DNA of 64,000 bases, taken from Phallusia mammillata (lineage: Eukaryota). The position numbers and the translations under genes were made by a program. The notes under the pieces were generated by a model. That model ran no database searches. It was not told the origin of the DNA and saw nothing but the letters and a program-made list of their open reading frames with translations. Within the stretch, counting starts at the first letter, position 1, and every line of letters starts with the position of its first letter. Location: positions 24,986,001 to 25,050,000 of the forward strand of contig OZ281496.1 in the NCBI GenBank assembly GCA_965637545.1, given 5' to 3'. Of this stretch, positions 1 through 46,439 are shown in pieces.

Positions 1-3000
1 CGCTTTGGGTTCTGAAACAAAACACAAACTTGAAATCTAATTTCCAATGTTTGCAATATTAATCATAATCAAAAGCATTACACTATTTGCCATGCAATGC
101 AAACAACAATCTTCGAAATTTAACATCACAAACTCATTACCTGGAAAAACTTCATAGTGCAATGGAAATGATTGGTTCCACCCTGATGGCAAATCAGTTC
201 GTATCACTTGCACAGTGAAATTGGAGTCACAAACTTTGGTGACTTTCAAAGTAAAGGTATGTTTGGGTAAACCAGGTGCAGTCACCATCACTTCAACACT
301 CTTGTTCAAAGTTTTCTTGAGAGGAAAGGTAAATGATGCAGTTGGAGTAGAACTGCTCGGAATGGTCATTGAACCAGTCTGCAAAGCTGAAAAACAACAG
401 AGAAGTAAAGAGTCGATCATATTTTTCACACAAATCTAGTGGCAAAGGGACTTACTTTGGGGCACACTTGGTGTAGTGGTAGTGATATTTTTGTTGGCAA
501 GAGATTTGGGTTCTGAAACAAAACACAAATTTGAAATTTGATTTTTAATGTTTCCAATATTAACTGTGCATGAGAGCGGTACTCTATCTGGGAACACGAC
601 ACACAGCAAAATATTTCAATTTTAAGAACTCAATCTCATTACCTGGATGGATTTCATAGTGCAATGGAAATGAATTGTTCCACCCTGATGGCAAATCAGT
701 TCGTTTCACTTCCACAGTGAAATTGGAGTCACAAATTTTAGTGACTTTCAAAGTAAAGGTATGCTTGGGTAGACCAGGCGCAGTAACCATCACTTCAACA
801 CTCTTGTTCAAAGTTTTATTGAAAGGAAAGGTAAATGAGGCAGTTGGAGTAGAACTGCTCGGAATGGTCATTGAACCATTCTGCAAAGCTGAAAAACACA
901 AAGAAATGAAGAGTCAGTCAGATTTTTCGCATCAATCTACTGGACAAAGGGCCTTACTTTGGGGCACACTTGGTGTGGTGGTGGTAGTGATATTTTTGTT
1001 GACAAGGGCTTTGGGTTCTGAAACAAAAGACAAACTTCATGTTTGATGTTTCATGTTTGCAATAATAACTGTGCATAAAGAGCGTTACTCTTTTAGGAAC
1101 ACAACACAAGGAAAAATATTTAAATTTTAAGAACACGATCTCATTACCTGGATAGACTTCATAGTGCAATGGAAATGATTGGTTCCACCCTGATGGCAAA
1201 TCAGTTCGTTTCACTTGCACAGTGAAATTGGAGTCACAAACTTTGGTGACTTTCAAATTAAAGGTATGCTTGGGTAGACCAGGTGCTGTCACCATCACTT
1301 TAACGCTCTTGTCCAAAGTTGTATTGAAAGGAAAGGTAAATGAGGCAGTTGGAGTAGAACTGCTCGGAATGGTCATTGAACCAGTCTGCAAAGCTGAAAA
1401 ACAAAAAACAGATAAAGAGTCAGTCAGATTTTTCGCACCAATCTACTGGACAAAGGGTCTTACTTTGGGGCACACTTGGTGTGGTGGTAGTGATATTTTT
1501 GGTGGCAAGCGCTTTGGGTTCTGAAACAAAACATAAACTTGAAATGTAATTTCCATTGTTCGCAATATTAATCATAATCAAAAGCATTACACTATTTGGC
1601 ATGCAATGCAAACAACAATCTTTGAAATTCAACATCACAAACTCATTACCTGGAAAAACTTCATAGTGCAATGGAAATGATTGGTTCCACCCTGATGGCA
1701 AATCAGTTCGTTTCACTTGCACAGTGAAATTGGAGTCACAAACTTCTATGACTTTCAAATTAAAGGTATGCTTTGGTAGACCAGGTGCAGTCACCATCAC
1801 TTCAACGCTCTTGTCCAAAGTTGTATTGAAAGGAAAGGTAAATGAGGCAGTTGGAGTAGAACTGCTCGGAATGGTCATTGAACCAGTCTGCAAAGCTGAA
1901 AAACACAAAGAAATGAAGAGTCAGTCAGATTTTTCGCACCAATCTACTGGACAAAGGGCCTTACTTTGGGGCACACTTGGTGTGGTGGTGGTAGTGATAT
2001 TTTTGTTGACAAGGGCTTTGGGTTCTGAAACAAAAGACAAACTTCATGTTTGATGTTTCATGTTTGCAATAATAACTGTGCATAAAGAGCGTTACTCTTT
2101 TAGGAACACAACACAAGGAAAAATATTTAAATTTTAAGAACACGATCTCATTACCTGGATAGATTTCATAGTGCAATGGAAATGATTGGTTCCACCCTGA
2201 TGGCGAATCAGTTCGTTTCACTTGCACAGTGAAATTGGAGTCACAAACTTTTATGACTTTCAAATTAAAGGTATGCTTTGGTAGACCAGGTGCTGTCACC
2301 ATCACTTTAACGCTCTTGTCCAAAGTTGTATTAAAAGGAAAGGTAAATGAGGCAGTTGAAGTAGAACTGCTCGGAATGGTCATTGAACCAGTCTGCAAAG
2401 CTGAAAAACAACAAAGAAATGAAGAGTCAGTCAGATTTTTCGCACCAATCTACTGGACAAAGGGTCTTACTTTGGGGCACACTTGGTGTGGTGGTGGTGG
2501 TAGTGATATTTTTGGTGGCAACGGCTTTGGGTTCTGAAACAAAACACAAACTTCATGTTTGATGTTTCATGTTTGCAATAATAACTGTGCATAAAGAGTG
2601 TTACTCTTTTAGGAACACAACACAAGAAAAAATATTTAAATTTTAAGAACACAATCTCATTACCTGGAAAAACTTCATAGTGTAATGGAAATGATTGGTT
2701 CCACCCTGATGGCAAATCAGTTCGTTTCACTTGCACAGTAAAATTGGAGTCACAAATTTTAGAAACTTTTAATGTAAAGGTATGCCTGGGTAATCCAGGT
2801 GCTGTCACCATCACTTCAACACTCTTGTTCAAAATTGTCTTGAGCGGAAAGGTAAATGAGGCAGTTGGAGTAGAACTGCTCGGAATGGTCATTGAACCAC
2901 TCTGCAAAGCTGAAAAACAACAAAGAAATGAAGAGTCAGTCAGATTTTTTACACAAATCAACTCGACAGGGGGCCTCACTTTGGGGCACACTTGGTGTGG

Positions 3001-6000
3001 TGGTGGTGGTGATATTTTTGTTAGCAAGCGCTTTGGGTTCTGAAACAAAACACAAACTTGAAATCTAATTTCCAATGTTTGCAATATTAATCATAATCAA
3101 AAGCATTACACTATTTGCCATGCAATGCAAACAACAATCTTCGAAATTTAACATCACAAACTCATTACCTGGAAAAACTTCATAGTGCAATGGAAATGAT
3201 TGGTTCCACCCTGATGGCAAATCAGTTCGTATCACTTGCACAGTGAAATTGGAGTCACAAACTTTGGTGACTTTCAAATTAAAGGTATGCTTGGGTAGAC
3301 CAGGAGCAGTCACCATCACTTCAACACTCTTGTTCAAAGTTTTATTGAAGGGAAAGGTAAATGAGGCAGTTGGAGTGGAACTGCTTGGAATGGTCATTGA
3401 ACCATTCTGCAAAGCTGAAAAACAACAGAGAAAGTAAAAATTCAAATATTTTTTCACAAAAAGGCAGTCGATTAAAAGCCTTACTTTGGGGCAAGCTTGG
3501 TGTAGTGGTAATGATATTTTTGTTGGCAAGTGCTTTGGGTTCTGAAACAAAACACAAACTTGAAATGTAATTTCCAATGTTTACAACATTAACTGTGCAT
3601 AAAGAGTGGTGCTCTAATTGGAACACGACACAAGGAAAAATACTTCAATTTCAAGACCACGAATTCATTACCTGGATAAATTTTGTATTGCAATGGAAAT
3701 GATTGGTTCCACCCTGATGGCAAATCAGTCCGTTTCACTTGTACAGTAAAATTGGAGTCACAAATTTTGGTGACTTTCAAAGTAAAGGTATGCTTGGGTA
3801 ATCCAGGTGCAGTCACCATCACTTCAACACTCTTGTTCAAAATTGTCTTGAGCGGAAAGGTAAATGATGCAGTTGGAGCAGAACTGCTCGGAATGGTCAT
3901 TGAACCACTCTGCAAAGCTGAAAAACAACAAAGAAATGAAGAGTCAGCTATTTTTTGCACCAATCTACTGGATAAAGGCCTTACTTTGGGATACACTTGG
4001 TGCAGTGGTAGCAACATTTTTGTTGGCAAGGGCTTTGGGTTCTGAAACAAAACACAAACTTGATAATTGATTTTGAATGTTTACAATATAAATTGTGCAT
4101 AAACAACGTAACACTATTTGGCAAGCAACACAAGAAACAATCATCGAATTTCAACATCACAAACTCATTACCTGGAAAAACTTCATAGTGCAATGGAAAT
4201 GATTGGTTCCACCCTGATGGCAAATCAGTTCGTATCACTTGCACAGTGAAATTGGAGTCACAAACTTTGGTGACTTTCAAATTAAAGGTATGCTTGGGTA
4301 GACCAGGTGCTGTCACCATCACTTTAACGCTCTTGTCCAAAGTTGTATTGAAAGGAAAGGTAAATGAGGCAGTTGGAGTAGAACTTCTCGGAATGGTCAT
4401 TGAACCAGTCTGCAAAGCTGAAAAAATAAAAAAAAATAAAGAGTCAGTCAGATTTTTCGCACCAATCTACTGGACAAAGGGTCTTACTTTGGGGCACACT
4501 TGGTGTGGTGGTAGTGATATTTTTGGTGGCAAGCGCTTTGGGTTCTGAAACAAAACATAAACTTGAAATGTAATTTCCATTGTTCGCAATATTAATCATA
4601 ATCAAAAGCATTACACTATTTGGCATGCAATGCAAACAACAATCTTTGAAATTCAACATCACAAACTCATTACCTGGAAAAACTTCATAGTGCAATGGAA
4701 ATGATTGGTTCCACCCTGATGGCAAATCAGTTCGTATCACTTGCACAGTGAAATTGGAGTCACAAACTTTGGTGACTTTCAAATTAAAGGTATGCTTGGG
4801 TAGACCAGGTGCTGTCACCATCACTTTAACGCTCTTGTCCAAAGTTGTATTGAAAGGAAAGGTAAATGAGGCAGTTGGAGTAGAACTGCTCGGAATGGTC
4901 ATTGAACCAGTCTGCAAAGCTGAAAAACACAAAGAAATGAAGAGTCAGTCAGATTTTTCGCACCAATCTACTGGACAAAGGGCCTTACTTTGGGGCACAC
5001 TTGGTGTGGTGGTGGTAGTGATATTTTTGTTGACAAGGGCTTTGGGTTCTGAAACAAAAGACAAACTTCATGTTTGATGTTTCATGTTTGCAATAATAAC
5101 TGTGCATAAAGAGCGTTACTCTTTTAGGAACACAACACAAGGAAAAATATTTAAATTTTAAGAACACGATCTCATTACCTGGATAGATTTCATAGTGCAA
5201 TGGAAATGATTGGTTCCACCCTGATGGCAAATCAGTTCGTTTCACTTGCACAGTGAAATTGGAGTCACAAACTTTTATGACTTTCAAATTAAAGGTATGC
5301 TTTGGTAGACCAGGTGCTGTCACCATCACTTTAACGCTCTTGTCCAAAGTTGTATTAAAAGGAAAGGTAAATGAGGCAGTTGGAGTAGAACTGCTCGGAA
5401 TGGTCATTGAACCAGTCTGCAAAGCTGAAAAAAATAAAATAAAGAGTCAGTCAGATTTTTCGCACCAATCTACTGGACAAAGGGTCTTACTTTGGGGCAC
5501 ACTTGGTGTGGTGGTGGTAGTGATATTTTTGTTGGCAAGCGCTTTGGGTTCTGAAACAAAACATAAACTTGAAATGTAATTTCCAATGTTTGCAATATTA
5601 ATCATAATCAAAAGCATTACACTATTTGCCATGCAATGCAAACAACAATCTTCGAAATTCAACATCACAAACTCATTACCTGGATAGATTTCATAGTGCA
5701 ATGGAAATGATTGGTTCCACCCTGATGGCAAATCAGTTCGTTTCACTTGCACAGTGAAATTGGAGTCACAAACTTTTATGACTTTCAAATTAAAGGTATG
5801 CTTTGGTAGACCAAGTGCAGTCACCATCACTTCAACGCTCTTGTCCAAAGTTGTATTGAAAGGAAAGGTAAATGAGGCAGTTGGAGTAGAACTGCTTGGA
5901 ATGGTCATTGAACCAGTCTGCAAAGCTGAAAAACAACAAAGAAATGAAGAGTCAGTCAGATTTTTTTACACAAATCAACTCGACAAGGGGCCTCACTACG

Positions 6001-7950
6001 GGGCACACTTGGTGTGGCGGTGGTGATATTTTTGTTGGCAAGCGCTTTGGGTTCTGAAACAAAACACAAACTTGATAATTGATTTTCAATGTTCACAATA
6101 TAAATTGTGCATAAACAACGTAACACTATTTGGCAAGCAACACAAGAAACAATCATCGAATTTCAACATCAATAATCTGTTACCTGGAAAAACTTCATAG
6201 TGCAATGGAAATGATTGGTTCCACCCTGATGGCAAATCAGTTCGTATCACTTGTACAGTGAAATTGGAGTCACAAACTTTGGTGACTTTCAAATCAAAGG
6301 TACGCTTCGGTAGACCAGGAGCAGTCACCATCACTTCAACACTCTTGTTCAAAGTTGTATTGAAAGGAAAGGTAAATGAGGCAGTTGGAGTGGAACTGCT
6401 TGGAATGGTCATTGAACCATTCTGCAAAGCTGAAAAAAAACAAAGAAAGTAAAAATTCAAATATTTTTTCACAGAAAGGCAGTCGATTAAAAGCCTTACT
6501 TTGGGGCAAGCTTGGTGTAGTGGTAATGATATTTTTGTTGGCAAGCGCTTTGGGTTCTGAAACAAAACACAAACTTGAAATCTAATTTCCAATGTTTACA
6601 ACATTAACTGTGCATAAAGAGGTGCTCTATTTAGAAAATGACACAAGGAAAAATACTTCAATTTCAAGACAACGAATTCATTACCTGGATAAATTTTGTA
6701 ATGCAATGGAAATGATTGGTTCCACCCTGATGGCAAATCAGTCCGTTTCACTTGTACAGTAAAATTGGAGTCACAAATTTTGGTGACTTTCAAAGTAAAG
6801 GTATGCTTGGGTAATCCAGGTGCAGTCACCATCACTTCAACACTCTTGTTCAAAATTGTCTTGAGCGGAAAGGTAAATGATGCAGTTGGAGCAGAACTGC
6901 TCGGAATGGTCATTGAACCACTCTGCAAATCTGAAAAACAACAAAGAAATGAAGAGTCAATTATTTTTTGCAACAATCTACTGGATAAAGGCCTTACTTT
7001 GGGGTACACTTGGTGTAGTGGTAGCGACCTTTTTGTTGGCAAGGGCTTTGGGTTCTGAAACAAAACACAAACTTGATAATTGATTTTCAATGTTCACAAT
7101 AAAAATTGTGCATAAACACAGTAACACTATTTGGCAAGCAACACAAGAAACAATCATCGAATTTCAACATCACTAATCTATTACCTGGAAAAACTTCATA
7201 GTGCAATGGAAATGATTGGTTCCATCCTGATGGCAAATCAGTTCGTTTTACTTCCACAGTGAAATTGGAGTCACAAATTTGGGTGACTTTCAAATTAAAG
7301 GTATGCTTGGGTAATCCAGGTGCAGTCACCATCACTTCAACACTCTTGTTCAAAGTTTTCTTGAAAGGAAAGGTAAATGAGGCAGTTGGAGTAGAACTGC
7401 TCGGAATGGTCATTGAACCACTCTGCAAAGCTGAAAAACAATAAAGAAATGAAGAGTCAGTCAGATTTTTTACACAAATCAACTCGACAGGGGGCCTCAC
7501 TTTGGGGCACACTTGGTGCGGTGGTGGTGATATTTTTGTTAGCAAGCGCTTTGGGTTCTGAAACAAAACACAAACTTGAAATCTAATTTCCAATGTTTGC
7601 AATATTAATCATAATCAAAAGCATTACACTATTTGCCATGCAATGCAAACAACAATCTTCGAAATTCAACATCACAAACTCATTACCTGGAAAAACTTCA
7701 TAGTGCAATGGAAATGATTGGTTCCACCCTGATGGCAAATCAGTTCGTATCACTTGCACAGTAAAATTGGAGTCACAAACTTTGGTGACTTTCAAATTAA
7801 AGGTATGCTTGGGTAGACCAGGAGCAGTCACCATCACTTCAACACTCTTGTTCAAAGTTTTATTGAAAGGAAAGGTAAATAAGGCAGTTGGGGTAGAACT
7901 GCTCGGAATGGTCATTGAACCATTCTGCAAAGCTGAAAACAATATAGAAG
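1..7950 (-). repeat. 16 copies of a ~500-bp monomer (246-nt A-type domain exon plus 57-63-nt linker exon)
   Basis: Domain exons recur about every 500 bp from 141-386 up to ~7690-7930, with linker EPKALANKNITTT(T)PSVPQ. A partial linker exon at 1-11 shows that the array continues past the window edge. Confidence 0.95.
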
Positions 7951-10900
7951 TTTAGTCAAACAGATTTTTCTTGCAAATATACTGGATTTATAGCCTTACT
8001 TTGGGGTATACTTGGTGTAGTGGCTGTGATATTTTTGTTTGCAAGGGCTTTGGGTTCTGAAACAAAATACAAACTTGAAATTTGAATGAATCCACAAAGT
8101 GGATTCAATAGTTTGGAAAACTGACCTGAATACATTTTCCAATACAAAGTTGGCCGTGGCTTTTGGGCAACTGATGTATTTGAACCTGAAATTGTCACAT
8201 CAAATCCCCAGTCACATATTTTTACAACATTAACACTGTAGGTTGATTCTACACTCAACCAAACTCGAACTTGAATGCTCGAGTTCACACATGACTGGAA
8301 TGGAACTTTCAGGATCAATGGCACAGAAGATATTGGAGGAATTCTCATCTTTCCTTCTTGAAGAACTAAAACATTTTCGTAATTTAGTACAGATATTGTC
8401 AAAGCAAGTTCAAAAATAAATCATACAACCATGTTAGCAATAAAACGCAAGTATTAAACTCTCTTACTTTGAGGAGCATTTGATTGTGGTTTGATGGCTG
8501 TTTTGTTTGCAAGTTCTGGTTGCACTGCAATATAAAAACAAACCAGCTTGTCAAATAAAGTTGTAAACAAAAACTTTTGCACCTTTGACAGTTAAAACAC
8601 CTTTTGAAAAAGCAACATAGAAATGAAATAAAAAACTAAAATGATATATACCTGAGAAAACTTTGAATTGCAAAGGGAATGATTGATTCCATCCCAATGG
8701 CAGATCAATTCGTTTCACTTCCACAGTGAAATTGGAGTCACAAACTTTAGTGATTTTCAAAGCAATCCTATGATTTGGGAGACCAACTGCTGTTACCCAC
8801 ACTTCAACATTCTTGCTCAAAGTGCTATTAAATGGATATGTAAGTGAGGCAGTTGGACTAGAACTGATAGGAACAACTACATCACCCTTTTGTAACACTG
8901 AAGAAAACAAACAACAGCATTATTTATATATATTACACTTATTTCATTTCTGTCAGAATTTTACCTTGTGGTATGCCTGCAGTTGGAACTAAAAAAGATA
9001 TATGTTTCATTACTTAAGTATGATTGAAGTGTAATTGCAAGAACCAGTTGAAACAAAGACATTAGCTTACTTGCATCACTCCATCTTATTGCTTTCCAGT
9101 AAATCAGGCCATTTTCCTGCCAACCAACTGCTTTGTCCATTCTTGTGATGGACACATTAAAACCAAGATCAGAAGTAGAAGTAACCTTGACCACAAATGT
9201 TCCATTTTGAGCTAGGAATGTCACTTCAACTTTGGCTGTCTGTTTGATGCATGAGTTGAAAGGAACAAACTCATTCAACACCTGGGTACTGCTTGCTCCT
9301 ACTCCATGGATTCCACTTTGTATAACTACAAATAGAGACGAGATAAGCAAACCACACAATCAAACACCAATTTAACAACGCATGACTACTTGTCCAAACG
9401 CACCTTTTGATAGTGAAGCATTTTTTGTCAAAGCTACAGGTCCTGTAAGACAAAAGATGGAAATAAGCTGCTCTTTGACCCCAAAACTACATTGTTGAGT
9501 GAAGTTTCTACACTTTTCACTGTTACCTGAAAAAACTTCATAGAGCAATGGAAATGATTGGCTCCATCCTGATGGCAAATCAGTTCGTTTCACTTGCACA
9601 GTGAAATTGGAGTCACAAATTTGGATGAGTTTTAGAGTAAAGGTATGTTTGGGTAAACCAGGTGCAGTCACCATCACTTTAACACTCTTGTTCAAAGTTT
9701 TCTTGAAAGGAAAGGTAAATGAGGCAGTTGGAGTGGAACTGTTCGAAATGATCATTGAACCAGTCTGCAATGCTGAAAAAGAATAGAGAAGTAAAGAGTC
9801 GATCAAATTCTTTACACATATCTACTGAATAAAAGGCCTTACTTTGGGGCAGACTGGGTGTTGTGGCAGTGATATTTTTGTTAGCAAGTGCTTTGGGTTC
9901 TGAAACAAAACATAAACTTGAAATTTGATTTTGAGTGTTTGCCATGTTAATTGTGAATAAACTTTAATAAACAAGATTACACTATTTGACACACACAACA
10001 ATTTTTCAATTTCAAGAACATCAATACATTACCTGAGAAAACTTCATAGTGCAATGAGAATGATTGGTTCCACCCTGATGGCGCATCAATTCGTTTCACT
10101 TGCACAGTAAAATTGGAGTCACAAATTTTAGTGACTTTCAACGTAAAGGTATGTTTGGGTAGGCCAGGTGCAGTCACCATCACTTTAACACTCTTGTTCA
10201 AAGTTTTCTTGAAAGTAAAGGTAAATGAGGCAGTTGGAGTGGAACTGTTCGAAATGATCATTGAACCACTCTGCAATGCTGAAAAAGAATAGAGAAGTAA
10301 AGAGTCGATCAAATTCTTTACACATATCTACTGAATCAAAGGCCTTACTTTGGGGCAGACTGGGTGTTGTGGTAGTGATATTTTTGTTAGCAAGTGCTTT
10401 GGGTTCTGAAACAAAACATAAACTTGAAATTTGATTTTGAGTGTTTGCTACGTTAATTGTGAATAAACTTTAATAAAGAAAATGACACTATTTGACACAC
10501 ACAACATTTTTTCAATTTCAAGAACATTAATACATTACCTGAGAAAACTTCATAGTGCAATGAGAATGATTGGTTCCACCCTGATGGCACATCAATTCGT
10601 TTCACTTGCACAGTAAAATTGGAGTCACAAATTTTAGTGACTTTCAACGTAAAGGCATGTTTGGGTAGACCAGGTGCAGTCACCATCACTTCAACACTCT
10701 TGTTCAAAGTTTTATTGAAAGGAAAGGTAAATAAGGCAGTTGGGGTAGAACTGCTCGGAATGGTCATTGAACCATTCTGCAAAGCTGAAAACAATATAGA
10801 AGTTTAGTCAAACAGATTTTTCTTACAAATATACTGGATTTATAGCCTTACTTTGGGGTATACTTGGTGTAGTGGCTGTGATATTTTTGTTTGCAAGGGC

Positions 10901-13900
10901 TTTGGGTTCTGAAACAAAATACAAACTTGAAATTTGAATGAATCCACAAAGTGGATTCAATAGTTTTATAACTGACCTGAATACATTTTCCAATACAAAG
11001 TTGGCAGTGGCTTTTGAGCAACTGATGTATTTGAACCTGAAATTGTCACATCAAATCCCCATTCACATATTTTTACAACATAAACACTGTAGGTTGATTC
11101 TACACTCAACCAAACTCGAACTTGAATGCTCGAGTTCACACATGACTGGAATGGAACTTTCAGGATCAATGGCACAGAAGATATTGGAGGAATTCTCATC
11201 TTTCCTTCTTGAAGAACTAAAACATTTTCGTAATTTAGTACAGATATTGTCAAAGCAAGTTCAAAAATAAATCATACAACCATGTTAGCAATAAAACGCA
11301 AGTATTAAACTCTCTTACTTTGAGGAGCATTTGATTGTGGTTTGATGGCTGTTTTGTTTGCAAGTTCTGGTTGCACTACAATATAAAAACAAACCAGCTT
11401 GTCAAATAAAGTTGTAAACAAAAACTTTTGCACCTTTGACAGTTAAAACACCTTTTGACAAAGCAACGTAAAATGAAATAAAAACTAAAATGATATATAC
11501 CTGAGAAAACCTTATACTGCAATGGGAATGATTGATTCCATCCCAATGGCAGATCAATTCGTTTCACTTCCACAGTGAAATTGGAGTCACAAACTTTAGT
11601 GATTTTCAAAGCGATCCTATGATTTGGGAGACCAACTGCTGTTACCCACACTTCAACATTCTTGCTCAAAGTGTTATTAAATGGATATGTGAGTGAGGCA
11701 GTTGGACTAGAACTGATAGGAACAACTACATCACCCTTTTGTAACACTGAAGAAAACAAACAACAGCATTATTTATATATATTACACTTATTTCATTTCT
11801 GTCAGAATTTTACCTTGTGGTAGGCCTGCAGTTGCACCTAAAAATATATATATTTCATTACTCAAGTATGATTGAAGTGCTATTGCAAAATAAAACCGTT
11901 GAAATAGAGACATTAGCTTACTTGCATCACTCCATCTAAATGCTTTCCAGTAAATCAGGCCATTTTCCTGCCAACCAACTGCTTTGTCCATTCTTGTGAT
12001 GGACACATTAAAACCAAGATCAGAAGTAGATGTAACCTTGACCACAAATGTTCCATTTTGAGCTAGGAATGTCACTTCAACTTTGGCTGTCTGTTTGATG
12101 CATGAGTTGAAAGGAACAAACTCATTCAACACCTGGGTACTGCTTGCTCCTACTCCATGGATTCCACTTTGTATAACTACAAATAGAGACGAGATAAGCA
12201 AACCACACAATCAAACACCAATTTAACAACGCATGACTACTTGTCCAAATGCACCTTTTGATAGTGAAGCATTTTTTGTCAAAGCTACAGGTCCTGTAAG
12301 ACAAAAAATGGAAATCAACTGCTTTTTGACCACCAAAATACATTGTTGAGTTAATTTTTTGGCACTTTTCTCTGTTACCTGAAAAAACTTCATAGTACAA
12401 TGGAAATGATTGGTTCCACCCTGATGGCAAATCAGTTCGTTTCACTTGCACAGTGAAATTGGAGTCACAAATTTGGATGAGTTTTAGAGTAAAGGTATGC
12501 TTGGGTAAACCAGGTGCAGTCACCTTCACTTCAACACTCTTGTTCAAAGTTTTCTTGAAAGGAAAAGTAAATGAGGCAGTTGGAGTAGAACTGTTCGAAA
12601 TGATCATTGAACCATTCTGCAATGCTGAAAAAGAATAGAGAAGTGAAGAGTCGATCAAATTCTTTACACATATCTACTGAATTAAAGGCCTTACTTGGGG
12701 GCAGACTTGGTTTTGTGGTAGTGATATTTTTGTTAGCAAGTGCTTTGGGTTCTGAAACAAAACATAAACTTGAAATTTGATTTTGAGTGTTTGCCATGTT
12801 AATTGTGAATAAACTTTAATAAACAAGATTACACTATTTGACACACACAACAATGTTTCAATTTCAAGAACATCAATACATTACCTGAGAAAACTTCATA
12901 GTGCAATGAGAATGATTGGTTCCACCCTGATGGCAAATCAATTCGTTTCACTTGCACAGTGAAATTGGAGTCACAAATTTTAGTGACTTTCAAAGTAAAG
13001 GCATGTTTGGGTAGACCAGGTGCAGTCACCATCACTTCAACACTCTTGTTCAAAGTTTTATTGAAAGGAAAGGTAAATGAGGCAGTTGGAGTAGAACTGC
13101 TCGGAATGGTCATGGAACCATTCTGCAAAGCTGAAAAGCAATAGAGAAGTGAGGAGTCAATCAGATTTTTCACACAAAACCACTGGAGTTATAGCCTTAC
13201 TTTGGGGCACACTTGGTGTAGTGGTAGTGATAGTTTTGTTTGCAAGGGCTTTGGGTTCTGAAACAAAACACAAACTTGAAATTTGAATAAATTTGCAAAG
13301 TGGATTCAAAAGTTTGGAAAATTGACCTGAATACATTTTCCAATATAAAGTTGCACTTTGGTTCTGGAAAACTGATGTATTTGAACCTGAAATTGTCACA
13401 TCAAATCCCCAGTCACATATTTTTACAACATTAACACTGTAGGTTGATGCTACACTTAACCAAACTCGAACTTGAATGCTCGAGTTCACACATGACTGGA
13501 ATGGAACTTTCAGGTTCAATGGCACAGAAGATATTGGAGGAATTCTCATCTTTCCTTCTTGAAGAACTAAAACATTTTCGTAATTTAGTACAGATATTGT
13601 CAAAGCAAGTTCAAAAATAAATCATACAACCATTTTGGCAATAAAACACAAGTATTAAACTATCTTACTTTGAGGAGCATTTGATTGTGGTTTGATGGCT
13701 GTTTTGTTTGCAAGTTCTTGTTGCACTACAATATAAAAATGAACCAGCTAGTTAAATACAGTTGTAAAAAAAACGTTCGCACCTTTGACAGTTAAAACAC
13801 CTTTTGAAAAAGCAACGTAGAAATGAAATAAAAAACTAAAATGATATATACCTGAGAAAACTTTAAATTGCAAAGGGAATGATTGATTCCATCCCAATGG

Positions 13901-28900: not shown

Positions 28901-31900
28901 TTGGAGTCACAAATTTGGATGAGTTTTAGAGTAAAGGTATGCTTGGGTAAACCAGGTGCAGTCACCTTCACTTCAACACTCTTGTTCAAAGTTTTCTTGA
29001 AAGGAAAAGTAAATGAGGCAGTTGGAGTAGAACTGTTCGAAATGATCATTGAACCAGTCTGCAATGCTGAAAAAGAATAGAGAAGTAAAGAGTCGATCAA
29101 ATTCTTTACACATATCTACTGAATTAAAGGCCTTACTTTGGGGCAGACTTGGTTTTGTGGCAGTGATATTTTTGTTAGCAAGTGCTTTGGGTTCTGAAAC
29201 AAAACATAAACTTGAAATTTGATTTTGAGTGTTTGCCATGTTAATTGTGAATAAACTTTAATAAACAAGATTACACTATTTGACACACACAACAATTTTT
29301 CAATTTCAAGAACATCAATACATTACCCGAGAAAACTTCATAGTGCAATGAGAATGATTGGTTCCACCCTGATGGCAAATCAGTTCGTTTCACTTGCACA
29401 GTGAAATTGGAGTCACAAATTTTAGTGACTTTCAAAGTAAAGGCATGTTTGGGTAGACCAGGTGCAGTCACCATCACTTCAACACTCTTGTTCAAAGTTT
29501 TATTGAAAGGAAAGGTAAATGAGGCAGTTGGAGTAGAACTGCTCGGAATGGTCATGGAACCATTCTGCAAAGCTGAAAAGCAATAGAGAAGTGAGGAGTC
29601 AATCAGATTTTTCACACAAAACCACTGGAGTTATAGCCTTACTTTGGGGCACACTTGGTGTAGTGGTAGGGATAGTTTTGTTTGCAAGGGCTTTGGGTTC
29701 TGAAACAAAACACAAACTTGAAATTTGAATAAATTTGCAAAGTGGATTCAATAGTTTGGAAAATTGACCTGAATACATTTTCCAATATAAAGTTGCACTT
29801 TGGTTCTGGGAAACTGGTGCATTTGAACCTGAAATTGTCACATCGAATCCCCAGTCACAAATTTTTACAACATTAACACTGTAGGTTGATGCTCCACTCA
29901 ACCAGACTCGAACTTGAATGCTCGAGTTCACGCATGACTGGAATGGAACTTTCAGGATCAATGGCACAGAAGATATTGGAGGAATTATCATCTTTCCTTC
30001 TTGAAGAACTAAAAACATTTTCGTAATTTAGTACAGATATTGTCCAAGCAAGTTCAAAAATAAATCATACAACCATTTTGGCAATAAAACACAAGTATTA
30101 AACACTCTTACTTTGAGGAGCATTTGATTGTGGTTTGATGGCTGTTTTGTTTGCAAGTTCTGGCTGCACTGCAATATAAAAAACAAACCAGCTTGACACA
30201 TACAATTAAAAATATAAAGTTTGTCGCTTTGACAGTTAAAACACCTTTTAACAAAGCAACATAAAAATGAAATCAAAATAAATATGAAAAATACCTGATA
30301 AAACCTTATACTGCAATGGGAATGATTGATTCCATCCCAATGGCAGATCAATTCGTTTCACTTCCACAGTGAAATTGGAGTCACAAACATTAGTGATTTT
30401 CAAAGCAATCCTGTGATTTGGGAGACCAACTGCTGTTACCCACACTTCAACATTCTTGCTCAAAGTGTTATTAAATGGATATGTGAGTGAGGCAGTTGGA
30501 CTAGAACTGATAGGAACAACTACATCACCCTTTTGTAACACTGAAGAAAACAAACACCAGCATTATTTATATATATTACACCTATTTCATTTCTGTCAGA
30601 ATTTTACCTTGTGGTAGGCCTGCAGTTGGACCTAAAAAAGATATATATTTCATTACTCAAGTATGTTTGAAGTGTAATTGCAAGAACCAGTTGAACCAAA
30701 TACATTAGCTTACTTGCATCACTCCATCTAAATGCTTTCCAGTAAATCAGGCCATTTTCCTGCCAACCAACTGCTTTGTCCATTCTTGTGATGGACACAT
30801 TAAAACCAAGATCAGAAGTAGATGTAACCTTGACCACAAATGTTCCATTTTGAGCTAGGAATGTCACTTCAACTTTGGCTGTCTGTTTGATGCACGAGTT
30901 GAAAGGAACAAACACATTCAACACCTGGGTACTGCTTGCACCTACTCCATGGGTTCCACTTTGTATAACTGAAATTTTGAAAGATGTTCATAACTTTTGC
31001 AATCACGCATTAATTAAACAACAATATCACTGCTTGTCCAATTACAGATGACAGTAAAAATCAACTCACCCTTTGATACAGAAGCATTTTTTGTCAAAGC
31101 AACAGATTCTGTAAAAACAAGAAATTAAAATTAAATTGTTTTAGATCACAAAAATATAGCCTTGAGTAAAGATTTTCGTGTTTCTCACTATTACCTGAGA
31201 AAACTTTATACTGCAATGGAAATGATTGGTTCCAACCTGATGGCATATCAGTCCGTTTTACTTGTACTGTAAAATGTGAGTCACAAACTTTGGTAATTTT
31301 CAAACTAAAGGTATGTTTTGGAAGACGAACAGATGACACCACCACTTCGACATTCTTGTTTAAAGTTGTATTAAATGGAAAGGTGAAAAAGGCAGTTGGA
31401 GTAGAACTGCTTGGAATAACTACATCACCAGTTTGCAATGCTAAAACATAAAAATAAGAGTGACAACTGTATAACTGCATGTTTGTTTCACAATGTTTAT
31501 GGTTATGAAAAAAGTTATCCCCAGTAATCATCTAAACTTACGATCTGTAATACTTTGGAATGCAAAAGAACCTCCCCAACTGGCAAAAGATTTGCTTGTT
31601 ACATTGTTTTGGGTGCTCCCAGTGTATGTAGACTGCCCCTGGTATTTGAAAACAGTGACAATGCCACCAGAATCTAAATAAATAATATTTTTTTGTTAAT
31701 ACCTGCATTAATTCACTTGCCAGAGCTTTTAGATTATTTTAGGCAAACTAAACTAGTTTCAGTCAAGTGAAGTTAGAAAACACAATAACTTTTATGGCAG
31801 TGATGTTTGTGTTTTTACAGGACAATATCATTTTTGATTCACTCAGTTGTGAATGTTTAGTATTTAATATGATATACCTGTTATACGTCCATTATGAATT

Positions 31901-34900
31901 GCTGCAGCACAAATATAAGAATCATCAGTGTACATTCCTGTTCCCCATAACCGTGAAGATGTTGCCTGACAACCGGCTGGACAAGCAAGTGCTACAGAAG
32001 TTCGTCCAGTGAAGTTAAGCTGCCTGGATTGTTTATTGCATGAATCTAAGTAGAAATAAGACAAAGATTTCTTGCATCTGTTCAAATTAAGTAATGTTGC
32101 TTTCCGTATATAATTAAAACAACATAGCATGCACTAAGCTGTGATGTTTGCACATGAACTAGATTTGAAACAAAATGTAAACAAAAATGCTTACATGTAG
32201 GTATGGCTGGCTTTACCAATTCAGGAGGATCTAAAAGCAAATCAATGAAATTGCTAAGTGCAAGATATTTTATCACCTTTTGACACCTTTTGAAAAAGCA
32301 AAATTAAAAATTAAATGAAAATTAAAGTGAAAAATACCTGATAAAACCTTATACTGCAATGGGAATGATTGATTCCATCCCAATGGCAGATCAATTCGTT
32401 TCACTTCCACAGTGAAATTGGAGTCACAAACATTAGTGATTTTCAAAGTAAATGTATGCATTGGGAGACCAACTGCTGTTACCCACACTTCAACATTCTT
32501 GCTCAAAGTTGTGTTGAATGGAAAGGTGAAAAGGGCAGTTGGAGCAGAACTGCTTGAAACAACTACATCACCAGTTTGCAATGCTAAAACATAAAAATAA
32601 GAGTGACAACTGCGTAACTGCATGTTTGTTTTACAACTTTTATGGTTATAAAAAAAGTTGTCCCCAGTAATCATCTAAACTAGGGGTGTGCAACCCGCAG
32701 CCCGCGGGCCACAATCCGGCCCACCAAGCTGTTTAGTGTGACCCTCACTCTGATTCAGAGCAAGTAAAAATGCACATTTTAGCAAAAAATCCCTGCTTTA
32801 GTTTTCGGTAAATCTATAAAGTTGCTATACGTAATAAGAATAAGCTAAACCAGCACATGGAAATTACAATTTTATTTAGCCAGACCTATGGTCTTCTATT
32901 CGTACTACAAGGTGCTTGTTGTGTAACTTCGAACGATCAAATGTGACATAATAACCCTCTTTGCCTTGTAAACAATTACTTTGTTGTGAAAGCCAGTGTT
33001 GCCACAAAACTTACTTGCACCTAACATTTTAAAGTTGATTTGGCAAGCTTGGTGTTGACTTTTGAATTTTTTCTTACGTTGTATATTTACTACAGCAGAC
33101 TAAAGGTAAAGTGACTATTCATTTAATAATTAAAGTTATAACAATAAATATATAACATATGTTGTGACTTATTTTAAATGGTACTTACATGGGCGAAAAT
33201 ATCTGAAATTTATTCTTAGACCCAGCAGTTGACAATACAACACAACCAGCTTACCATAAGTAGTAATAACTTGTGTAACAATCAGTTGTAGTCACACAAA
33301 TAGCTCTACCCAGTAAAGTGTTTATTGGCATGTAAAGCCAACACGAAAGAGTATTTTAAATGCAAAATTATCTGCATATCTGCATGATACTATAATGCAA
33401 GCCGCACCAGCAGTAGGGTAAAAAGGCATAAACAAATACAGTACATGAAACAAATTGTGTGGCCCTCGCTTGATGTCCGAAATTGGTTATATGGCCCACC
33501 GACGAAAAAGGTTGCACACCCCTGATCTAAACTTACGATCTGTAATACTTTGGAATGCAAAAGAACCTCCCCAACCGGCATAGGATTTGCTTGTTACATT
33601 GTTTTTGGTGCTCCCTGTGTATGTAGACTGTCCCTTGTATTTGAAAACAGTGACAATGCCACCAGAATCTGAACAAATAACAAAGTCTTTGGTAATACCT
33701 GCAGTAATCGCTTGCCAGAGCTTTTAGACTATTATAGACAAACTTAACCAGTTTCAGTCAAGTGAAGTTAGAAGCTTTTATGTCAGAAACGTTTTTTTTT
33801 TGTGCAGGCTTTCACTCATAGCGTCTTATGTAAATGTTCAGTATTTAATATGATATACCTGTTATACGTCCATCATGAATTGCTGCAGCACAAATATAAG
33901 AATCATCAGTGTACATTCCTGTTCCCCATAACCGTGAAGATGTTGCCTGACAACCGGCTGGACAAACAAGTGTTACAGAAGCTCGTCCAGTAAAGTTAAG
34001 CTGTCTGGATTTATTATTGCATGAATCTAAATAGAAAAAAAACAAAGCTTTGATATATTAAACTAGAAGGGTGGCTTAGCACATAGTGCCGTTGCACATA
34101 CACTGTGACCTATTTCTTAACATATATTTACATCCGACATTTATTTTATATTGGATCCCATATCATCCACTGTATTTTATAACCTTAGTTGTTTCTGCAA
34201 GCAGAAACTCATGGGTCCCCACACATGCAAAGTTGTAAATAATGCATTTCAAGAGATAACAATGAGAAGGGTTGGCATTGTAACGTCAAACACAGTGATC
34301 GGTACTGTGCATAAATAAATATGTTACATGGAGTACAAACTATTTAAGTTCATTCCATTCATACATTTATTAAGGTTTTTCTATTTTATGACCATCTGAG
34401 AAAAAAGTGTTAAGTAGTGAGAAAATAGGCCAAAACAAAACAATCAGCTCCTATTAATGGTTAATTGCATTTGACTGTAGGGGCCTAGTGGAGTAAATGA
34501 TAGGTACTACTGAGTTTAACAGGACAACCAACACCTACAAATGGTACACTCTACAAACTGTCCAAATATAATTTAATTCATACATTGTTTAAAAAATTGA
34601 ACAATTTTGGGGGGCTAGTGGGGTGTTGGGGCAACAGGGTTAAACACAACATTCTACACCTATAAATGACAAATTCTGCAAGCTTTTCAAATTTCACTAA
34701 ATTCCGACACCGTTTAAAAAACTCACCCATTTTAGGGGGTCAGTGGGGGTAACCAATGGGGTTTTGATACCCAAAAGTATAAAATATGCAACCAGGATGA
34801 CCCAATTAACAGTCATGTAAAATTTCATCCAATAATGTTTAAAATTCTGACCACTAGAGGTGTTATTAGCAACATTCCTCAATGCTTCTGACGTCAAAAG

Positions 34901-37900
34901 GCTGTTAAGACCCCTCTGACTGGCATGTGCGAAAACGTCCAACAAGTAATGCACAAATACAAGTACCATATGTACTGGGGCCTTTATTACACCATTACAC
35001 CACAGAAATCTTTTGTTTGTGCCAACATACAAAAACGTTTTACACTTGGGGTCTAGCAGGGTAAATATTGGGGTTATCAAGTCAAACAAAGCAAATAGCA
35101 CATCTGCATAACTATATCTACCATCTGTAAAAGTTTCAGCCGAATTCACTAAATATTTCATGCCAGAAGTGCATGGACAAACTTCATCGGAGAAAAAAAA
35201 GGGGACCCATAATTCCTCCACTTATTTCATATTGGGTCCCATATTAGTCACCGTCTTTTATAACCGTAGTTGTTTCTGCAGGCAGAAACGCATGGGTCCC
35301 CACACATTTGCAAATAATGCAATTAAAGAGATAACCATAAGAAAATTTGGTGTTGTATAGCAAAACACTTAGATCAGTACTTGGCTTATATAATCATGCA
35401 ATACAAATTGGATTCAAATCAGACATTGTTTAAAGCAGGGGTGTGCAACCTGCGGCCCGCGGGCCAAATGCGGCCCTTGATTAAAGGTTGTGCGGCCCGC
35501 AGTGACGCTTGGATTTCAAATGCACTGGCAAACGAGTTTAACTACTATATATTTTTGAGCAGATTGATGCGCCCGGTGCTATTTTTTGTGACCTGACAAA
35601 ATGTGACTAGAATCAAATGCGAATTTACTTGTAGTTAAGCATATTTGGTAGTCAACAAAGGGAAATCACCTTGTGTTATACACAGGTGCGGCCCGCGATC
35701 AAATTTTGACAACTATATTTGGCCCCACAGTAACAAAGGTTGCACACCCCTGGTTTAAAGTTTTCCTATTTAAAACAATTAATGTTCTATTTTAAAACAA
35801 AGAAGTAAAACACAAAAATCGACACCTATAAATGGCACGTTTTACAAGCTAACCAAAATTCTTACAACTGCAGCCCTGTTTAAAAAACTCCCATCACCCA
35901 TTTTAGGGCGTTAGTGGGGTAAATATTGGGGCTACAGGGTTTAACACAACAATCAGCTTCTCGAAATGGCATTGGCTACAAGCTATCCAAATTTCACCGA
36001 TTCAGACACTGTTTGAAAAAAATCAACCACTTTAGGGGGCTAGTGGGGTAAATATTGGGGCTACAGGGTTTAACAGAAACAATTGACACCTATATATGCC
36101 ATATTCTACAAACTATCCTAATTTCAGCCAATTCCGATACCGTTTAAAAACTCACCCATTTTAGGGGGCTAGTGGGGTAAATGTTGGAGCTGCAAGATCA
36201 AACACAACAATCATCATTTGTAAATGGTAAACTCTACAAGCTATCCAAATGTCAGTCAATTCTGGCCCTGTTTAAATAAATAACCCATTTTAGGGGGCTA
36301 GTGGGGTAATTAATGGGGTTCTGCACCCTAATGTTAAAAATAAGAAACCGCAATGACCCAATCAAAAATTCTGTAAAATTTCGTCCAAATCAGCCAATGT
36401 TTAAAACTGTGACCACCAGGAGGAGTTTTAATCAACAACCATAATGACCTTGTGACGTCATAAGGCTATGAACAACCCCCTAACTGCAATCTGCAAACAC
36501 ATTCATAGCCCAGCCCAGAAACACAAGTAACATATGAGGTTGGCTTTATAACACCACATAAAACTAACGTTTGTGGTCCGCTGCAACAACATGTAACGTT
36601 TTGGGGGCTAGCGTGGTAAATGCTGGGGTTATCGGGGCAAATGAAGCAGATGGCACATCTACATAACTATATCTACCATCTGTAAAAGTTTCATCCAAAT
36701 CCATCAAACATTTGATGACAAAAGAGGGTGGACAAACCGCAGGGAAGAAAAAAAAAGAAATCGAGTAAAATCAAAATGTGTCCACTTCAGGGAAGGGGAC
36801 CCATAATTACAAAGAAACACTCCTCTTGGTATATAGCTGAAAAACTATGGCATGCACCAAAGCAGTGTTGTTTGGACATGCACTGCATTAAGACATTGTA
36901 AACAAAAAAGCTTACATGTAGGTATGGCTAGCTTGGCCAATTCAGGAGGATCTGAAACAAATTAATCAAATTGTAAATTGCAAGAAATTTTATCAAATTA
37001 ACATATTGATCACAAATAATGGACAACAGAATTATATATTTTCTAAACATGTAACTTGATTACCTGCAAAAATTCTCCAGTATAGTGTCGTCGGAGGGCT
37101 CAGCCCCACAGAAGCATTTTGACCTAAGATTCTCACAACAAATCCCCAGTCACAAATTTTGACAACATGGGGTGTACAAGCCGTTGGTCCGACACACCAA
37201 ACTTTAAGTCCAGTGCTGGAGTTTACACAGGATTGAAAAGCAACTTTTAATTGATTTCCATAAGTAAAGCCGGGTGGGACTAGCATCCATCCCAGCTGTA
37301 AAGCTGCAAAACATTTTTGGTTTATTATTTATTTATTTTTTGAGACGCAAAATTTTTGTTAAAACAAATATATATATGCAACATGTTAAAAGCAAGAAGT
37401 CGAACCAGAACTAAAATGAACTGACAAACCCATGAACCCATTTGTGTGTTTTATTTCATTAAACCTGAACTGAACCATAATTTACAATTAATCCTAAACC
37501 ATACTTGAACCGCAAATTTTGTTTGGTGCTGAACCGAAACAGAACCAGCAAGAAAAACCTACTGAAGAATACATGAATTATTATCAGCTATGGGGCAGGT
37601 AAAAATAACAAATAAAAGGTTGTGCACTGTGCACAGTCAAAATTGATACAGAATTTGATAGGCTGTGTAGATAAAGGTAGAATTAAATCAAGAGGATTTT
37701 AACCACTTCCAAACTCGAAAATATATGTCCTTTTAAACCTTAACCGAACCTGAAGTTTGACTCCGTGGTTGAAAGGTTAGGAAAATGTAAATTCAAGTCA
37801 AGTGTGTACAATTTATATCAGTTCATAGATTCTGGAATTATTTTATTATCTAATGGACTTTCATTTTACATGTGTTTTGATTGATAGTGTATAGCACATA

Positions 37901-40900
37901 CAACTGTCCTTACATGGTAATATCCGACTTGAGGTGGTAGTGAGATCAGTCGGTACTGCAACAACAATTAAAATACTTTATTTACTGTTGTTTAGTTATT
38001 TTCAACAACCATTAACTATGGAAACTGCACTTGTACAAAAACTAGCACTAACACAGGCACAAAGTAAACTTATGTTGTTTAAACCAATTTCAGGAGTCAG
38101 AAAAAGAATATATCAGGTACTGCACAAAATGTCTTTTTTGTAAATCTCGATTATGGCAAATGAAACTCTCAAAGTGATAAAAGTATTCTATAGTAAAACA
38201 TCAAGCTTGAAACCACCTGAAGTAATCACAGTTTGAGAAGATCTGCTTATTAGACCAAGTCAGCATTCAACAAGTTTAAAGTAACAGCACACTTAATTTA
38301 TTTTCATAATTCAAACATAATTTAGCACACAAAAATTGTTGTCTATAAAGTCCAGAACTTTTTTGGGTGAGATTGTCAGGCACCTGACCAGTGAAGTTAA
38401 ACCACTTGAAACTATATGAACAAACCATTTATACAAAGCTAAAGTTTGGGAATTTACCACAATACAACCAAAAACTTAACGTTTCTTACCAGTTGAGTTG
38501 ATGTTTTGTAGAGCCAATGGTTCTGGAGATACATGATTTTCGTTAGCAACTGACTAACACAGTACATGGCAGAGTGTAGCTAATTGTATTGTGCAATAAA
38601 ATAGAGATGTGCTAGTCATAAGGTGGCTAACACAGACTGTAATCTACAGCTTAGTGTGTTTAATGCCAGATGTAAATTTTATCACTGACATACAAACCTG
38701 GCAGAGTTTTCCATTGTAAATCAAGAGACTGGTTCCAACCAATTGCCAAATCATTCCGCTTAATAGCAATTGTAAAACCAGAATCACAAATTTTAAGAAT
38801 CCGTGTGGAATACTGGTAATCTGCAGTTCCAGCCAAATAGGTGTGAACAACGTTGCTTGAATTTAAAGACTTATTGAATGGGACTGTAATGGTAGTTGTT
38901 GGGTATAAGCTTGCTGGGACAACACTTAATCCATCTTGTAATGCTATAACAAAACAGAAACATCATTTTCGCACATAGATACTTTGACTTCCCACAAATA
39001 TGATGTTTGGTTGCTGTGTTATATTAATCAATTTATGGTATTTTCGAAGGCAAAGCAGGAAAGGTCCACATTTGTTTTTTGTTTAATAATTAAACTGTTC
39101 TCACATAATTATTGAAATTAGAACCAAAAGTGGTTACAATAAATCTCATTCCGCAATTACTTTGTGGCGCCATTCGCCACCCACATTTAAAAAATGCGGC
39201 CGATGTGCGTCAACTGTTGAAGCGGAACGAAAACAAACAAATCGAATATCTAAATCTGACTTCTTTGTTTTGGTCGTGTCCGATTACAGGAAGTTTTCTA
39301 GCAAACACGTATCCATGCTTAAGTCCGAACCAAGACTACATGCCGTTTTGATGCCCCCAAAGAAATTCTTGCTGTGGTTCTTTTCAAGTTGGATAAAGAG
39401 GTGGGTTCGTGAATGCGCTTTTTTACCAAAAAAATTATGGATACATATATTGTTGGTGAAACAAAATGGCCGACGTCCAATAACTTTTTAGTGCAATTAT
39501 TTGAGCAGTTTTATTGTGCGATTGATTTTTTGTCTTTCACTGCGACATGTAGTTATTAACAAATACTTTTATAGTGGACAAAAAGGCCCGCGTGCCCGCG
39601 TTTGTGAAAATATCGTGTGCACATTCTAAAGTAGCGTATTGGGGCCAATCTAGGCAGCCCTTTGTCCAGTAAGTTTTTTTATGTGTGTTGAAAGTATACA
39701 GGGCTATTTCGAAATACTAATAAAACTTCCTAATTAACCATATCAATATGCTGACGGCACGGTAACGGCCATAGGCGCCGAGTTTTACAAAAATGCAAGG
39801 TGGCGGACGTAAAATATGACGTCATTTCATGTGACGTCACTAATGCGCGCAAGAGCTCAAACTCAAAGCTCAACAAACTTCCAATAGAATGCAAAGTTCG
39901 TCAAAATCATAACAAAAGAGAATTTTTGAAATAATATTTGCGTAGAACACTTTGTTGTAACGTTTTTCATTCGTTTGGCAATGTTCAAAAGATGTTTGGC
40001 CAAGTTGTTGTTGCTTTGTATCACCCAAAATGACCATTTAATACAGTACAATCGCAAAACATTCCATTCACTAGCAAACAATTGTGTGTTTTACGTCATA
40101 AACAACAACTTTTGACGCTTTTATTTGTTGTTATATCGCCAGCACACTTGTTTAAAAGCAAAACCGTTCCTGATTTTCTTCAGATTATACGATGTTTCGT
40201 ACGATACCGCTACCAATAACCCAAATTTTCCACAGTGGCCGCCACCGTGCTTTACAAACCCAAGGTGGCGGCGCCACCCCGCCACCACCTACTTGGCGCC
40301 TATGGTAACGGCTATTAGGTTTGGGATAAAAGTTTCTGCACACAATAACATTATAATTCAATTTCAAATACCCTATTACATGTAAGTTCCGACAAATCAC
40401 TTAGTCGTTCACCCTTTGGTTTTAAAGATATATATATTTCGCTATTACAGCATCGTCAGTATCTACGAACTGCTTGTTCGTAGATACTGACGATGCTGTA
40501 ATAGCGAAATATATATATCTTTAAAACCAAAGGGTGAACGACTAAGTGATTTGTCGGAACTTACATCTATTGTTATAAGGATTTTTAGTCTTCACTCACC
40601 AAGCAACGGACTGGGTGATTCGAGCTTTAAGTTTCAATTACGAGTATTGACCCTATTACATGGTTCCAATAGTAGATTGCGTATTTTATTGAGCCCGTAT
40701 TGCATCGCCTTAGCGCTATTTGGCGCGTGTCATGATGAAAATATATTTATTCTGTGGTTCGTATTATATAATGTAACTTTAGCTAAGAAAATTCAGTGTA
40801 AAAAACCACTAAATCTGTCGCTATATTTTATTTGTTTTATCGAAACACTGATGATGCTTTTATAGCGAAATGCATTTGTTTTGATAAAACAAATAAAATA

Positions 40901-46438: not shown

Positions 46439-46439
46439 G

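Follow-up and report, generated by a model that had tools for sequence, protein, structure and literature searches.

A predicted giant adhesion receptor gene of Phallusia mammillata with a tandem array of H-type-lectin-fold domains

The stretch analysed here, a window of 64,000 nt of Phallusia mammillata DNA (G000:C3:24986001-25050000), carries on its minus strand the 5' part of a gene for a predicted adhesion G-protein-coupled receptor (GPCR). The gene has a regular exon structure with one open frame, copies that were duplicated together with their introns, an adhesion-type seven-transmembrane (7TM) domain and a repeated domain of predicted fold. It is rather likely that this is one adhesion GPCR gene with a predicted product of 9,132 residues, that its ectodomain was grown by tandem duplication, and that the product acts as a long multivalent glycan-gripping tether signalling via the 7TM. 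Under this reading tandem copying of DNA, with a phase 1-1 exon pair (an H-type-lectin-fold domain and a Thr/Pro linker) as the unit, would have enlarged the ectodomain, a full 27.4-kb mRNA with all exons included would be the main form, and the tether would grip sugars on surfaces and signal through the 7TM. Coordinates are those of the window unless prefixed by contig (C2, C3 or C5).

Gene model and feature list

Exons were reconstructed on the minus strand from tblastn domain matches combined with AG and GT sites. Tandem repetition was found over the first 31 kb of the window, each repeat consisting, on the minus strand, of an exon of 80-85 codons and a short linker exon with GT-AG introns. 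The model of the whole gene comprises 188 exons (27,399 nt) over a genomic span of 59.6 kb and predicts a product of 9,132 amino acids (aa; ~997 kDa), with a lone stop at the terminus and GT-AG boundaries at all introns. An earlier note on this DNA, made from the letters alone, had placed its finding at 141..38943; the exons there are real, but both ends of the gene were left out, the start lying at 41436 and the stop at G000:C3:24967822, 18 kb outside the window. That note also overlooked the identity of the gene, which is an adhesion GPCR whose 7TM lies beyond the window.

In the predicted product, 83 one-exon beta-sandwich domains with Thr/Pro linkers and two LCCL domains precede an HRM/GAIN-like region, a GPS-like motif and a 7TM of adhesion type. 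From the N-terminus, the repeated domains comprise four unique ones, with the two LCCL domains among them, nine E-C-D-A-B units, a further B, E-C-D, 26 of A type and four unique ones. The predicted protein carries 342 N-glycan sequons, and its linkers are 17% Thr and 17% Pro. Since all 150 introns of the array fall within 66-133 nt, there is no space in it for a gene boundary. The parts of the gene, in transcript order, are as follows.

41376..41436, minus strand: predicted first coding exon with a 20-aa signal peptide, ending in phase 1 (from the sequence and the gene model).
38698..38943, minus strand: domain 1 (H-type-lectin fold), 246 nt, phase 1-1; linker exons at 38522-38490 and 37955-37914.
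37064..37303, minus strand: domain 2, divergent and D-like, 240 nt; linker at 36951-36916.
33537..34026, minus strand: LCCL domain 1, in exons 34026-33859 (168 nt) and 33668-33537 (132 nt), both 1-1.
32195..32583, minus strand: domain 3 and its linker, from the exon model.
31542..32045, minus strand: LCCL domain 2 (168 + 132 nt), a duplicate of LCCL 1 with a near-identical translation.
31070..31440, minus strand: domain 4 and its linker, from the exon model.
8126..30968, minus strand: five-domain array, domains 5-53; nine E-C-D-A-B units, the ninth with an extra B, then E-C-D.
1..7932, minus strand: single-domain array, domains 54-79; unit of ~503 bp with a 246-nt domain exon and a Thr/Pro linker exon of 57, 60 or 63 nt.
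1..11 (marker), minus strand: continuation outside the window to the stop at C3:24967822, with domains 80-83, two Thr-rich linkers, an HRM-like exon pair, a GAIN-like region, the GPS and six 7TM/tail exons.
C3:24971458-24971595, minus strand: GPS-like exon (Pfam score under the cut-off).

The two halves of LCCL 1 scored 49.9 and 23.4 bits against Pfam PF03815 (cut-off 22.6), which identifies the domain as LCCL. Sixteen copies of the single-domain array lie inside the window and 10 more extend down to G000:C3:24981101. The long intron before LCCL 1 (34000-36800) is full of dispersed repeats, including a 129-bp tandem, and contig depth there is very high.

Exon phase, growth of the array and transcripts

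The earlier note had stated that every exon it checked is a multiple of three flanked by phase-1 introns, and this was borne out. Within 141-38943, 142 exons were modelled (69 domain exons, 69 linker exons and 4 LCCL half-exons) and all 142 are 1-1, although they are not independent trials because the copies descend from few types. Their lengths are identical to those that had been given: 24 nt (10 exons), 33 (one), 36 (two), 39 (10), 42 (one), 57 (39), 60 (five), 63 (one), 132 (two), 168 (two), 240 (11), 246 (48) and 255 (10). When linker exons were selected by splice-site score alone, with no frame constraint, 75 of 75 were multiples of three; one of these was later extended by hand from 45 to 57 nt, and eight other linkers were set by hand or by an anchor. 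The 14 exons that close the gene, starting with the second HRM-like exon, serve as an internal control: their classes are 0-0, 0-1, 0-2, 1-0 and 2-0, and 1-1 does not occur among them. The amino acid variation described between paralogous domains was likewise recovered, position 50 being K in 20, Q in 2 and E in 4 of the 26 single-array copies, and positions 61 and 65 varying too.

Of 87 homologous domain exons in other parts of the stretches retrieved, scored with no assumption on frame, 77 are 1-1 (23 of 23 off contig C5 and 54 of 64 on it). The candidate splice sites for these exons are already biased, phase 1 accounting for 161 of 263 acceptors and 137 of 324 donors. Several of the homologous 1-1 exons are the sole copy in their gene. 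The 1-1 symmetry is an ancient feature of the module and is itself ordinary; class 1-1 is described as the normal state of mobile or shuffled extracellular modules in the available text of PMC8001218.

The eight five-domain units of 2,348-2,350 bp are 96.4-99.8% identical, introns included. In the single-domain array, near-twins of up to 99.8% identity lie six places apart, giving a local period of six units, and intron divergence (0.14-0.19) is close to the synonymous distance (pS 0.13). The ratio of nonsynonymous to synonymous differences (pN/pS) was 0.26-0.63 and below 1 in all five domain types, these being pooled values from non-independent pairs rather than a site model. There are 56 distinct protein sequences among the 83 domains. 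Genomic expansion is supported because the copies carry their introns and because the module is 1-1 in other genes, including those with a single copy. The similarity of intron and synonymous distances, together with the low pN/pS, points to recent unequal exchange under mild purifying selection and not to diversification; diversifying selection was rejected on the same pooled ratios. The engine would be unequal crossing-over and gene conversion, which would also vary array length between haplotypes, and such variation is plausible, as expected for an array of this kind. On this reading the symmetry is a precondition and a footprint of the expansion and no sign of a splicing code.

Transcript support was sought in public protein records and in assembled contigs of sequencing runs. 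The last 1,086 aa of the model recur without a difference in record P0002 (CAB3229160.1, 'CD97 antigen-like', Phallusia mammillata), which begins at domain 80, at an internal Met and with no signal peptide. Contig 12 of run X15 (3,072 nt) contains domains 81-83 and exons 180-182 at the record positions predicted by the model, so the small exons in between are all included; it extends 1,163 nt further, where the model requires 987 nt of 7TM exons (an excess of 176 nt). Domains 81-83 are linked to the GPS in this one RNA-type contig. Run X13, from the study of X15, has the same joints in shorter contigs, and DNA run X2 has neither of the two listed exon joints. A long modular ectodomain is joined to the 7TM in one product in P0002 and the 3,072-nt contig, and at full length only in the model. 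Within the array, a 1,014-nt contig of run X12 joins exons D, C and E in order with a spacing that fits 57- and 24-nt linkers, and D-linker, E-C and B-linker-E joints are present in runs from two studies.

The earlier note had interpreted the symmetry in two ways, as having allowed genomic expansion, which agrees with the results above, and as support for combinatorial splicing, with 1-1 cassettes skipped to give many isoforms for recognition diversity. The second idea is quite improbable. Every exon could indeed be skipped in frame, and N-terminal domains vary by splicing in 72% of the mouse adhesion GPCRs examined, according to the accessible part of PMC6667449. Among the joints listed (15 of 47 in all), seven lie in the array. 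Six of these keep to genomic order; the other one, from 29064 to 29643, has the appearance of a skip. It carries two extra letters that match the start of single-array exons and not exon 29066, and its depth is 17 and 50 against 8-15 elsewhere, for which reasons a paralog assigned to the wrong copy is the best reading. Record P0019, in which a five-unit linker is followed by a single-array domain, could also be taken as a skipping product, but both P0018 and P0019 change from one copy type to another within exons and follow the gene in reverse order, neither of which splicing can produce. The array introns are short, and short introns favour exon inclusion. The 56 distinct proteins among 83 domains show no excess of amino acid change, and pN/pS is below 1. 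Nothing among the joints listed supports regulated or combinatorial skipping; low-level skipping is quite possible, since contigs lose rare forms and adhesion GPCR N-termini are often spliced.

The short public records P0001, P0018 and P0019 were rejected as evidence for splicing or alleles, being mosaics only 77-92% identical to their best place; they may be truly rearranged alleles. Intron-reading forms were also observed (29515-29715 in contig 22 of run X17; P0001, P0018 and P0019); if real, their frame ends and a secreted ectodomain would result, and pre-mRNA or DNA explains them equally well.

A further alternative, slightly less probable again than combinatorial skipping, is that the array length is partly an assembly artefact, or that two genes are present, one for a secreted lectin polymer and one for a receptor of 1,100 aa. 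Units of up to 99.8% identity are hard to assemble, P0002 starts at domain 80, and contig C5 has related multi-domain genes that carry signal-like exons but in which no 7TM was detected. Against this, no two five-domain units are identical, the start of P0002 is an internal Met without signal peptide, and the array has neither a stop exon nor a long gap. DNA run X2 is far deeper on the repeat (565-1,803 at three repeat positions) than on unique contigs (12-33), which indicates that there are many copies there too; the reference holds 15-35 copies at >=92% likeness to those positions. Summed overlapping contigs give no copy number, so no claim of polymorphism is made from X2.

Receptor core and repeated domain

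For the receptor core, Pfam 7tm_2 was matched with 24.1 bits (cut-off 20.6) on the exon of transmembrane (TM) segments 2-3, one of six TM/tail exons giving a match. All 19 PDB sequence matches were adhesion GPCRs (best E 3.5e-9, residues 767-1052 of P0002). By sequence, the 7TM is of secretin/adhesion type. A phmmer match of P0002 to ADGRD1 (684-1042) crosses the GPS, and the two Cys-containing HRM-like exons gave a weak match to GPR128_N (E 0.018).

At the GPS the triplet is Gln-Val-Thr in place of His-Leu/Ile-Ser/Thr. Self-cleaving adhesion GPCRs have His-Leu/Ile-Ser/Thr there and non-cleavable members exist (PMC13197933, in the portion available). Self-cleavage is unlikely because Gln stands where the catalytic His lies, and the missing His does not expel the gene from the class because of those non-cleavable members. 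If uncleaved, load or clustering would pass through an intact GAIN, and the only R-x-K/R-R site in the protein (residue 8686, ~100 residues before the GPS triplet) would be a possible furin cut. A weak search for relatives at 1,902-5,000 aa, which ends below the length of the protein, found none, and a search for relatives of near-equal length returned two matches, the protein itself and one mollusc adhesion GPCR at 23% identity, with no orthologue.

The fold of the repeated domain was predicted from an alignment of 17 copies and gave a six-stranded beta-sandwich with a predicted local distance difference test (pLDDT) value of 91, a single-sequence prediction being poor (pLDDT 65). In a structural search of 48,161 chains, six matches had Z >=8 (range 8.5-10.6): two Pseudomonas phage tailspikes, Helix pomatia agglutinin (2CCV, Z 9.3, root-mean-square deviation (rmsd) 2.1, 79 residues aligned), discoidin I (2W94, Z 9.2), the R1 pyocin fibre and an Acinetobacter tailspike. 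H-type lectins and those phage and pyocin tips form one known structural group (PMC6116203, as far as its text is available). With hhalign the domain reached 96% to P0003, a protein with a Pfam H_lectin score of 63 bits, and among Atlas neighbours H_lectin or Gp53-like_C occurs in 11-42% of members. The domain is named here for its modelled H-type-lectin fold and not as a member of family PF09458, because the Pfam gathering cut-off was reached in none of 10 exons.

The motif F..V.RxD...GW...L.W of the domain also occurs in two metagenome proteins, each with three domains, that pass Pfam H_lectin. Over 94 ascidian domains R62 is conserved in 93%, D64 in 70% and W69 in 71%, and these residues are present in 6 of 6 metagenome domains. 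In discoidin, the pocket aromatics W235 and Y241 are close to the C-terminus of the domain, and trimer subunits form the site between them (bioRxiv 10.64898/2026.06.18.733164, available portion); by aligned ranges, with no residue alignment, R62-D64-W69 would lie in about the same region. Sugar binding, if it occurs, would use the conserved R62-x-D64...G68-W69 loop, probably with three domains together as in known H-type lectins.

The same gene and origin would also fit domains that form an inert, heavily glycosylated, mucin-like spacer that binds no sugar, with the stalk holding the LCCL domains and domains 1-4 far from the membrane or acting as a mechanical antenna. The 342 sequons, the Thr/Pro-rich linkers and the absence of a Pfam H_lectin match agree with this, near-identical copies add length and not new specificity, and ADGRG4 has a spacer of ~2,000 glycosylated residues (PMC13197933, in the part consulted). 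Conservation of R62, D64 and W69 across the ascidian and metagenome domains argues against an inert spacer, as does pN/pS below 1, although constraint on the fold alone fits the latter too. This alternative is judged unlikely.

Relatives of the domain were searched for separately. The domain sequence gave only chance matches against the PDB, and a profile search gave four matches, all from Phallusia. Another domain search gave 15 matches, of which two are from Phallusia, two are H_lectin-scoring metagenome proteins and 11 short ones (several cadherin-like) were set aside. No relatives in other tunicates were found in these searches, although the database label LOC100182044 may hint at a counterpart in Ciona, and a genome search with PF09458 had no match, its control also having none. 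Gene transfer from microbes is not claimed: a 100-row tree groups the domains of the giant gene with the six metagenome domains (90/75, unstarred), and a microbial origin of the metagenome proteins is a guess, their records carrying no organism.

Several results weigh against a full-length, glycan-gripping receptor. The runs are called RNA by guess, none being on record as such, and it is the spliced joints that back the guess. The gene is not spanned by any one contig, and in the model its 5' part (signal peptide, domains 1-4, LCCL) is tied to the rest by gene structure alone; that contigs in four of four runs leave the 5' exons (signal peptide, domain 1, LCCL) uncovered is not counted as evidence. 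The joint of domain 79 to 80 is absent among those listed; a contig reaches 145 nt 5' of domain 80, beyond the 48-nt linker. Records P0001 and P0018 run on into intron sequence at their ends, which points to unspliced or truncated RNAs. The GPS scored 18.3 bits (E 0.0033), under the cut-off of 22.5, an hmmscan of the whole of P0002 found neither 7tm_2, GPS nor GAIN at E <= 0.001, and for GAIN the Atlas gave leads of <=0.85, to GPS and GAIN+HRM clusters. For the domain, no Pfam family, H_lectin included, was over the cut-off in 10 of 10 exons; Foldseek ranked the H-type lectin/phage-tip group first but with no match at E <= 0.001; identity to solved lectins is 8-10%, and a shared fold alone shows no function; and D-type domains are without the R-x-D...GW motif.

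Gene family and comparison with known systems

Directly downstream lie nine genes on the same strand with related GPS/7TM exons (C3:24756000-24968000), in which 5, 0, 1, 2, 0, 2, 6, 0 and 0 lectin-fold domains were detected, assigned by position rather than from full gene models. A catalytic His was found in none of nine GPS motifs of this C3 cluster, and two GPS on C2 are canonical. Single-domain adhesion GPCR candidates lie at C2:21.70 Mb and C3:21.69 Mb. At C5:18200000-18310000, 65 matches of the domain occur in both orientations with several signal-peptide-like first exons; no 7TM was detected in this cluster, which probably encodes multi-domain secreted or anchored lectin-fold proteins. 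The fetched stretches hold at least 87 copies of the module in addition to the 83 of the giant gene, which is the extreme of a lineage-expanded receptor family. The cluster forms a natural series of 0, 1, 2, 5, 6 and 83 copies on the same core, so that ectodomain length can be tested against signalling.

On contigs C1, C3 and C4, 161 7tm_2 matches, many of them covering a similar range (profile ~93-225) and lying in clusters on C1, represent a large expansion of secretin/adhesion-type 7TM genes. Within the window, a long terminal repeat (LTR) retrotransposon-like element on the minus strand (43690-46950) has reverse transcriptase, RNase H and integrase in an 877-codon frame and a flanking direct repeat at ~43731 and ~46822, with no gag-length frame among the open reading frames listed. 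An MGAT4-family glycosyltransferase gene lies upstream of the receptor on the same strand (48200-51800, minus), three exons matching PF04666, with no link to it shown. Several exon-like frames of a further gene are found at 52000-64000 (minus), with no Pfam match over the cut-off.

In the literature covered (mostly open main texts), nothing was found on this gene or on an adhesion GPCR whose ectodomain has the H-type-lectin fold, alone or together with LCCL. In the portions available, one report describes a membrane protein of Toxoplasma that has a single H-type lectin domain (PMC9670195), another states that molluscs and brachiopods show no expansion of H-type lectins (PMC8878817), and a survey of choanoflagellate GPCRs mentions neither lectin nor LCCL (PMC12716839). 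In the corresponding part of a 2008 survey of Ciona adhesion GPCRs, 21 of 30 had only a GPS annotated and 24 were unclassified (PMC2396169); modules that escape recognition as this one does may explain part of those. The model, if it holds, adds a new adhesion GPCR ectodomain module with an H-type-lectin fold invisible to Pfam, and the array displays domain expansion and homogenisation in progress. A bolder proposal, doubtful as a whole, would make this the largest GPCR yet seen: a length-polymorphic glycan sensor in the megadalton range, its 83 domains forming trimers as phage fibre tips or snail agglutinin do. It would stand at the head of an ascidian family in which array copy number, from 0 to 83, changes between genes and between individuals and thereby sets the reach and the avidity for glycans of microbes or of self.

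The predicted protein resembles adhesion GPCRs (its 7TM being nearest to ADGRG2, ADGRD1 and ADGRG6) in its signal peptide, long modular ectodomain, HRM-like Cys domain, GPS-like motif and 7tm_2-type 7TM, and differs from them in an ectodomain of H-type-lectin-fold and LCCL domains and a GPS without His. The ectodomain of ADGRV1 has 35 Calx-beta domains. ADGRV1/VLGR1 is the largest adhesion GPCR described, with 6,306 aa in human, in the text available of PMC9496679 and PMC13197933. Both have a giant ectodomain with many tandem copies of one domain, but the predicted 9,132 aa would be ~45%, or ~2,800 residues, longer than ADGRV1, the domain is another one, and the array is very recent and homogenised where the ADGRV1 repeats are old and divergent.

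In an array of the Dscam1 type, one of many paralogous exons is chosen. Many paralogous exons of one fold in a surface receptor are common to both, whereas here every domain exon is paired with a linker exon and adjacent copies are spliced one after another; a mutually exclusive choice of single exons was not found, the 1,014-nt contig keeping D, C and E in series.

With H-type lectins (2CCV, 2W94 and coral SLL-2, 3WMP) and gp53-like phage tips the modelled domain shares a six-stranded beta-sandwich (Z 9.3, 9.2 and 7.5; rmsd 2.1-2.4 over 79 residues), and it differs in its 8-19% identity, the lack of a Pfam match and its 83 copies in one predicted membrane protein. Known H-type lectins are trimers with the site between subunits (bioRxiv 10.64898/2026.06.18.733164, available portion). 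Finally, the gene resembles the class 1-1 shuffled modules described in the accessible part of PMC8001218 in having one mainly-beta domain per 1-1 exon and a phase-1 intron after the signal peptide, and the module is apparently an unannotated, lineage-expanded member of that class. The phase regularity is real but ordinary, and it is for its size and its module that the gene is notable.

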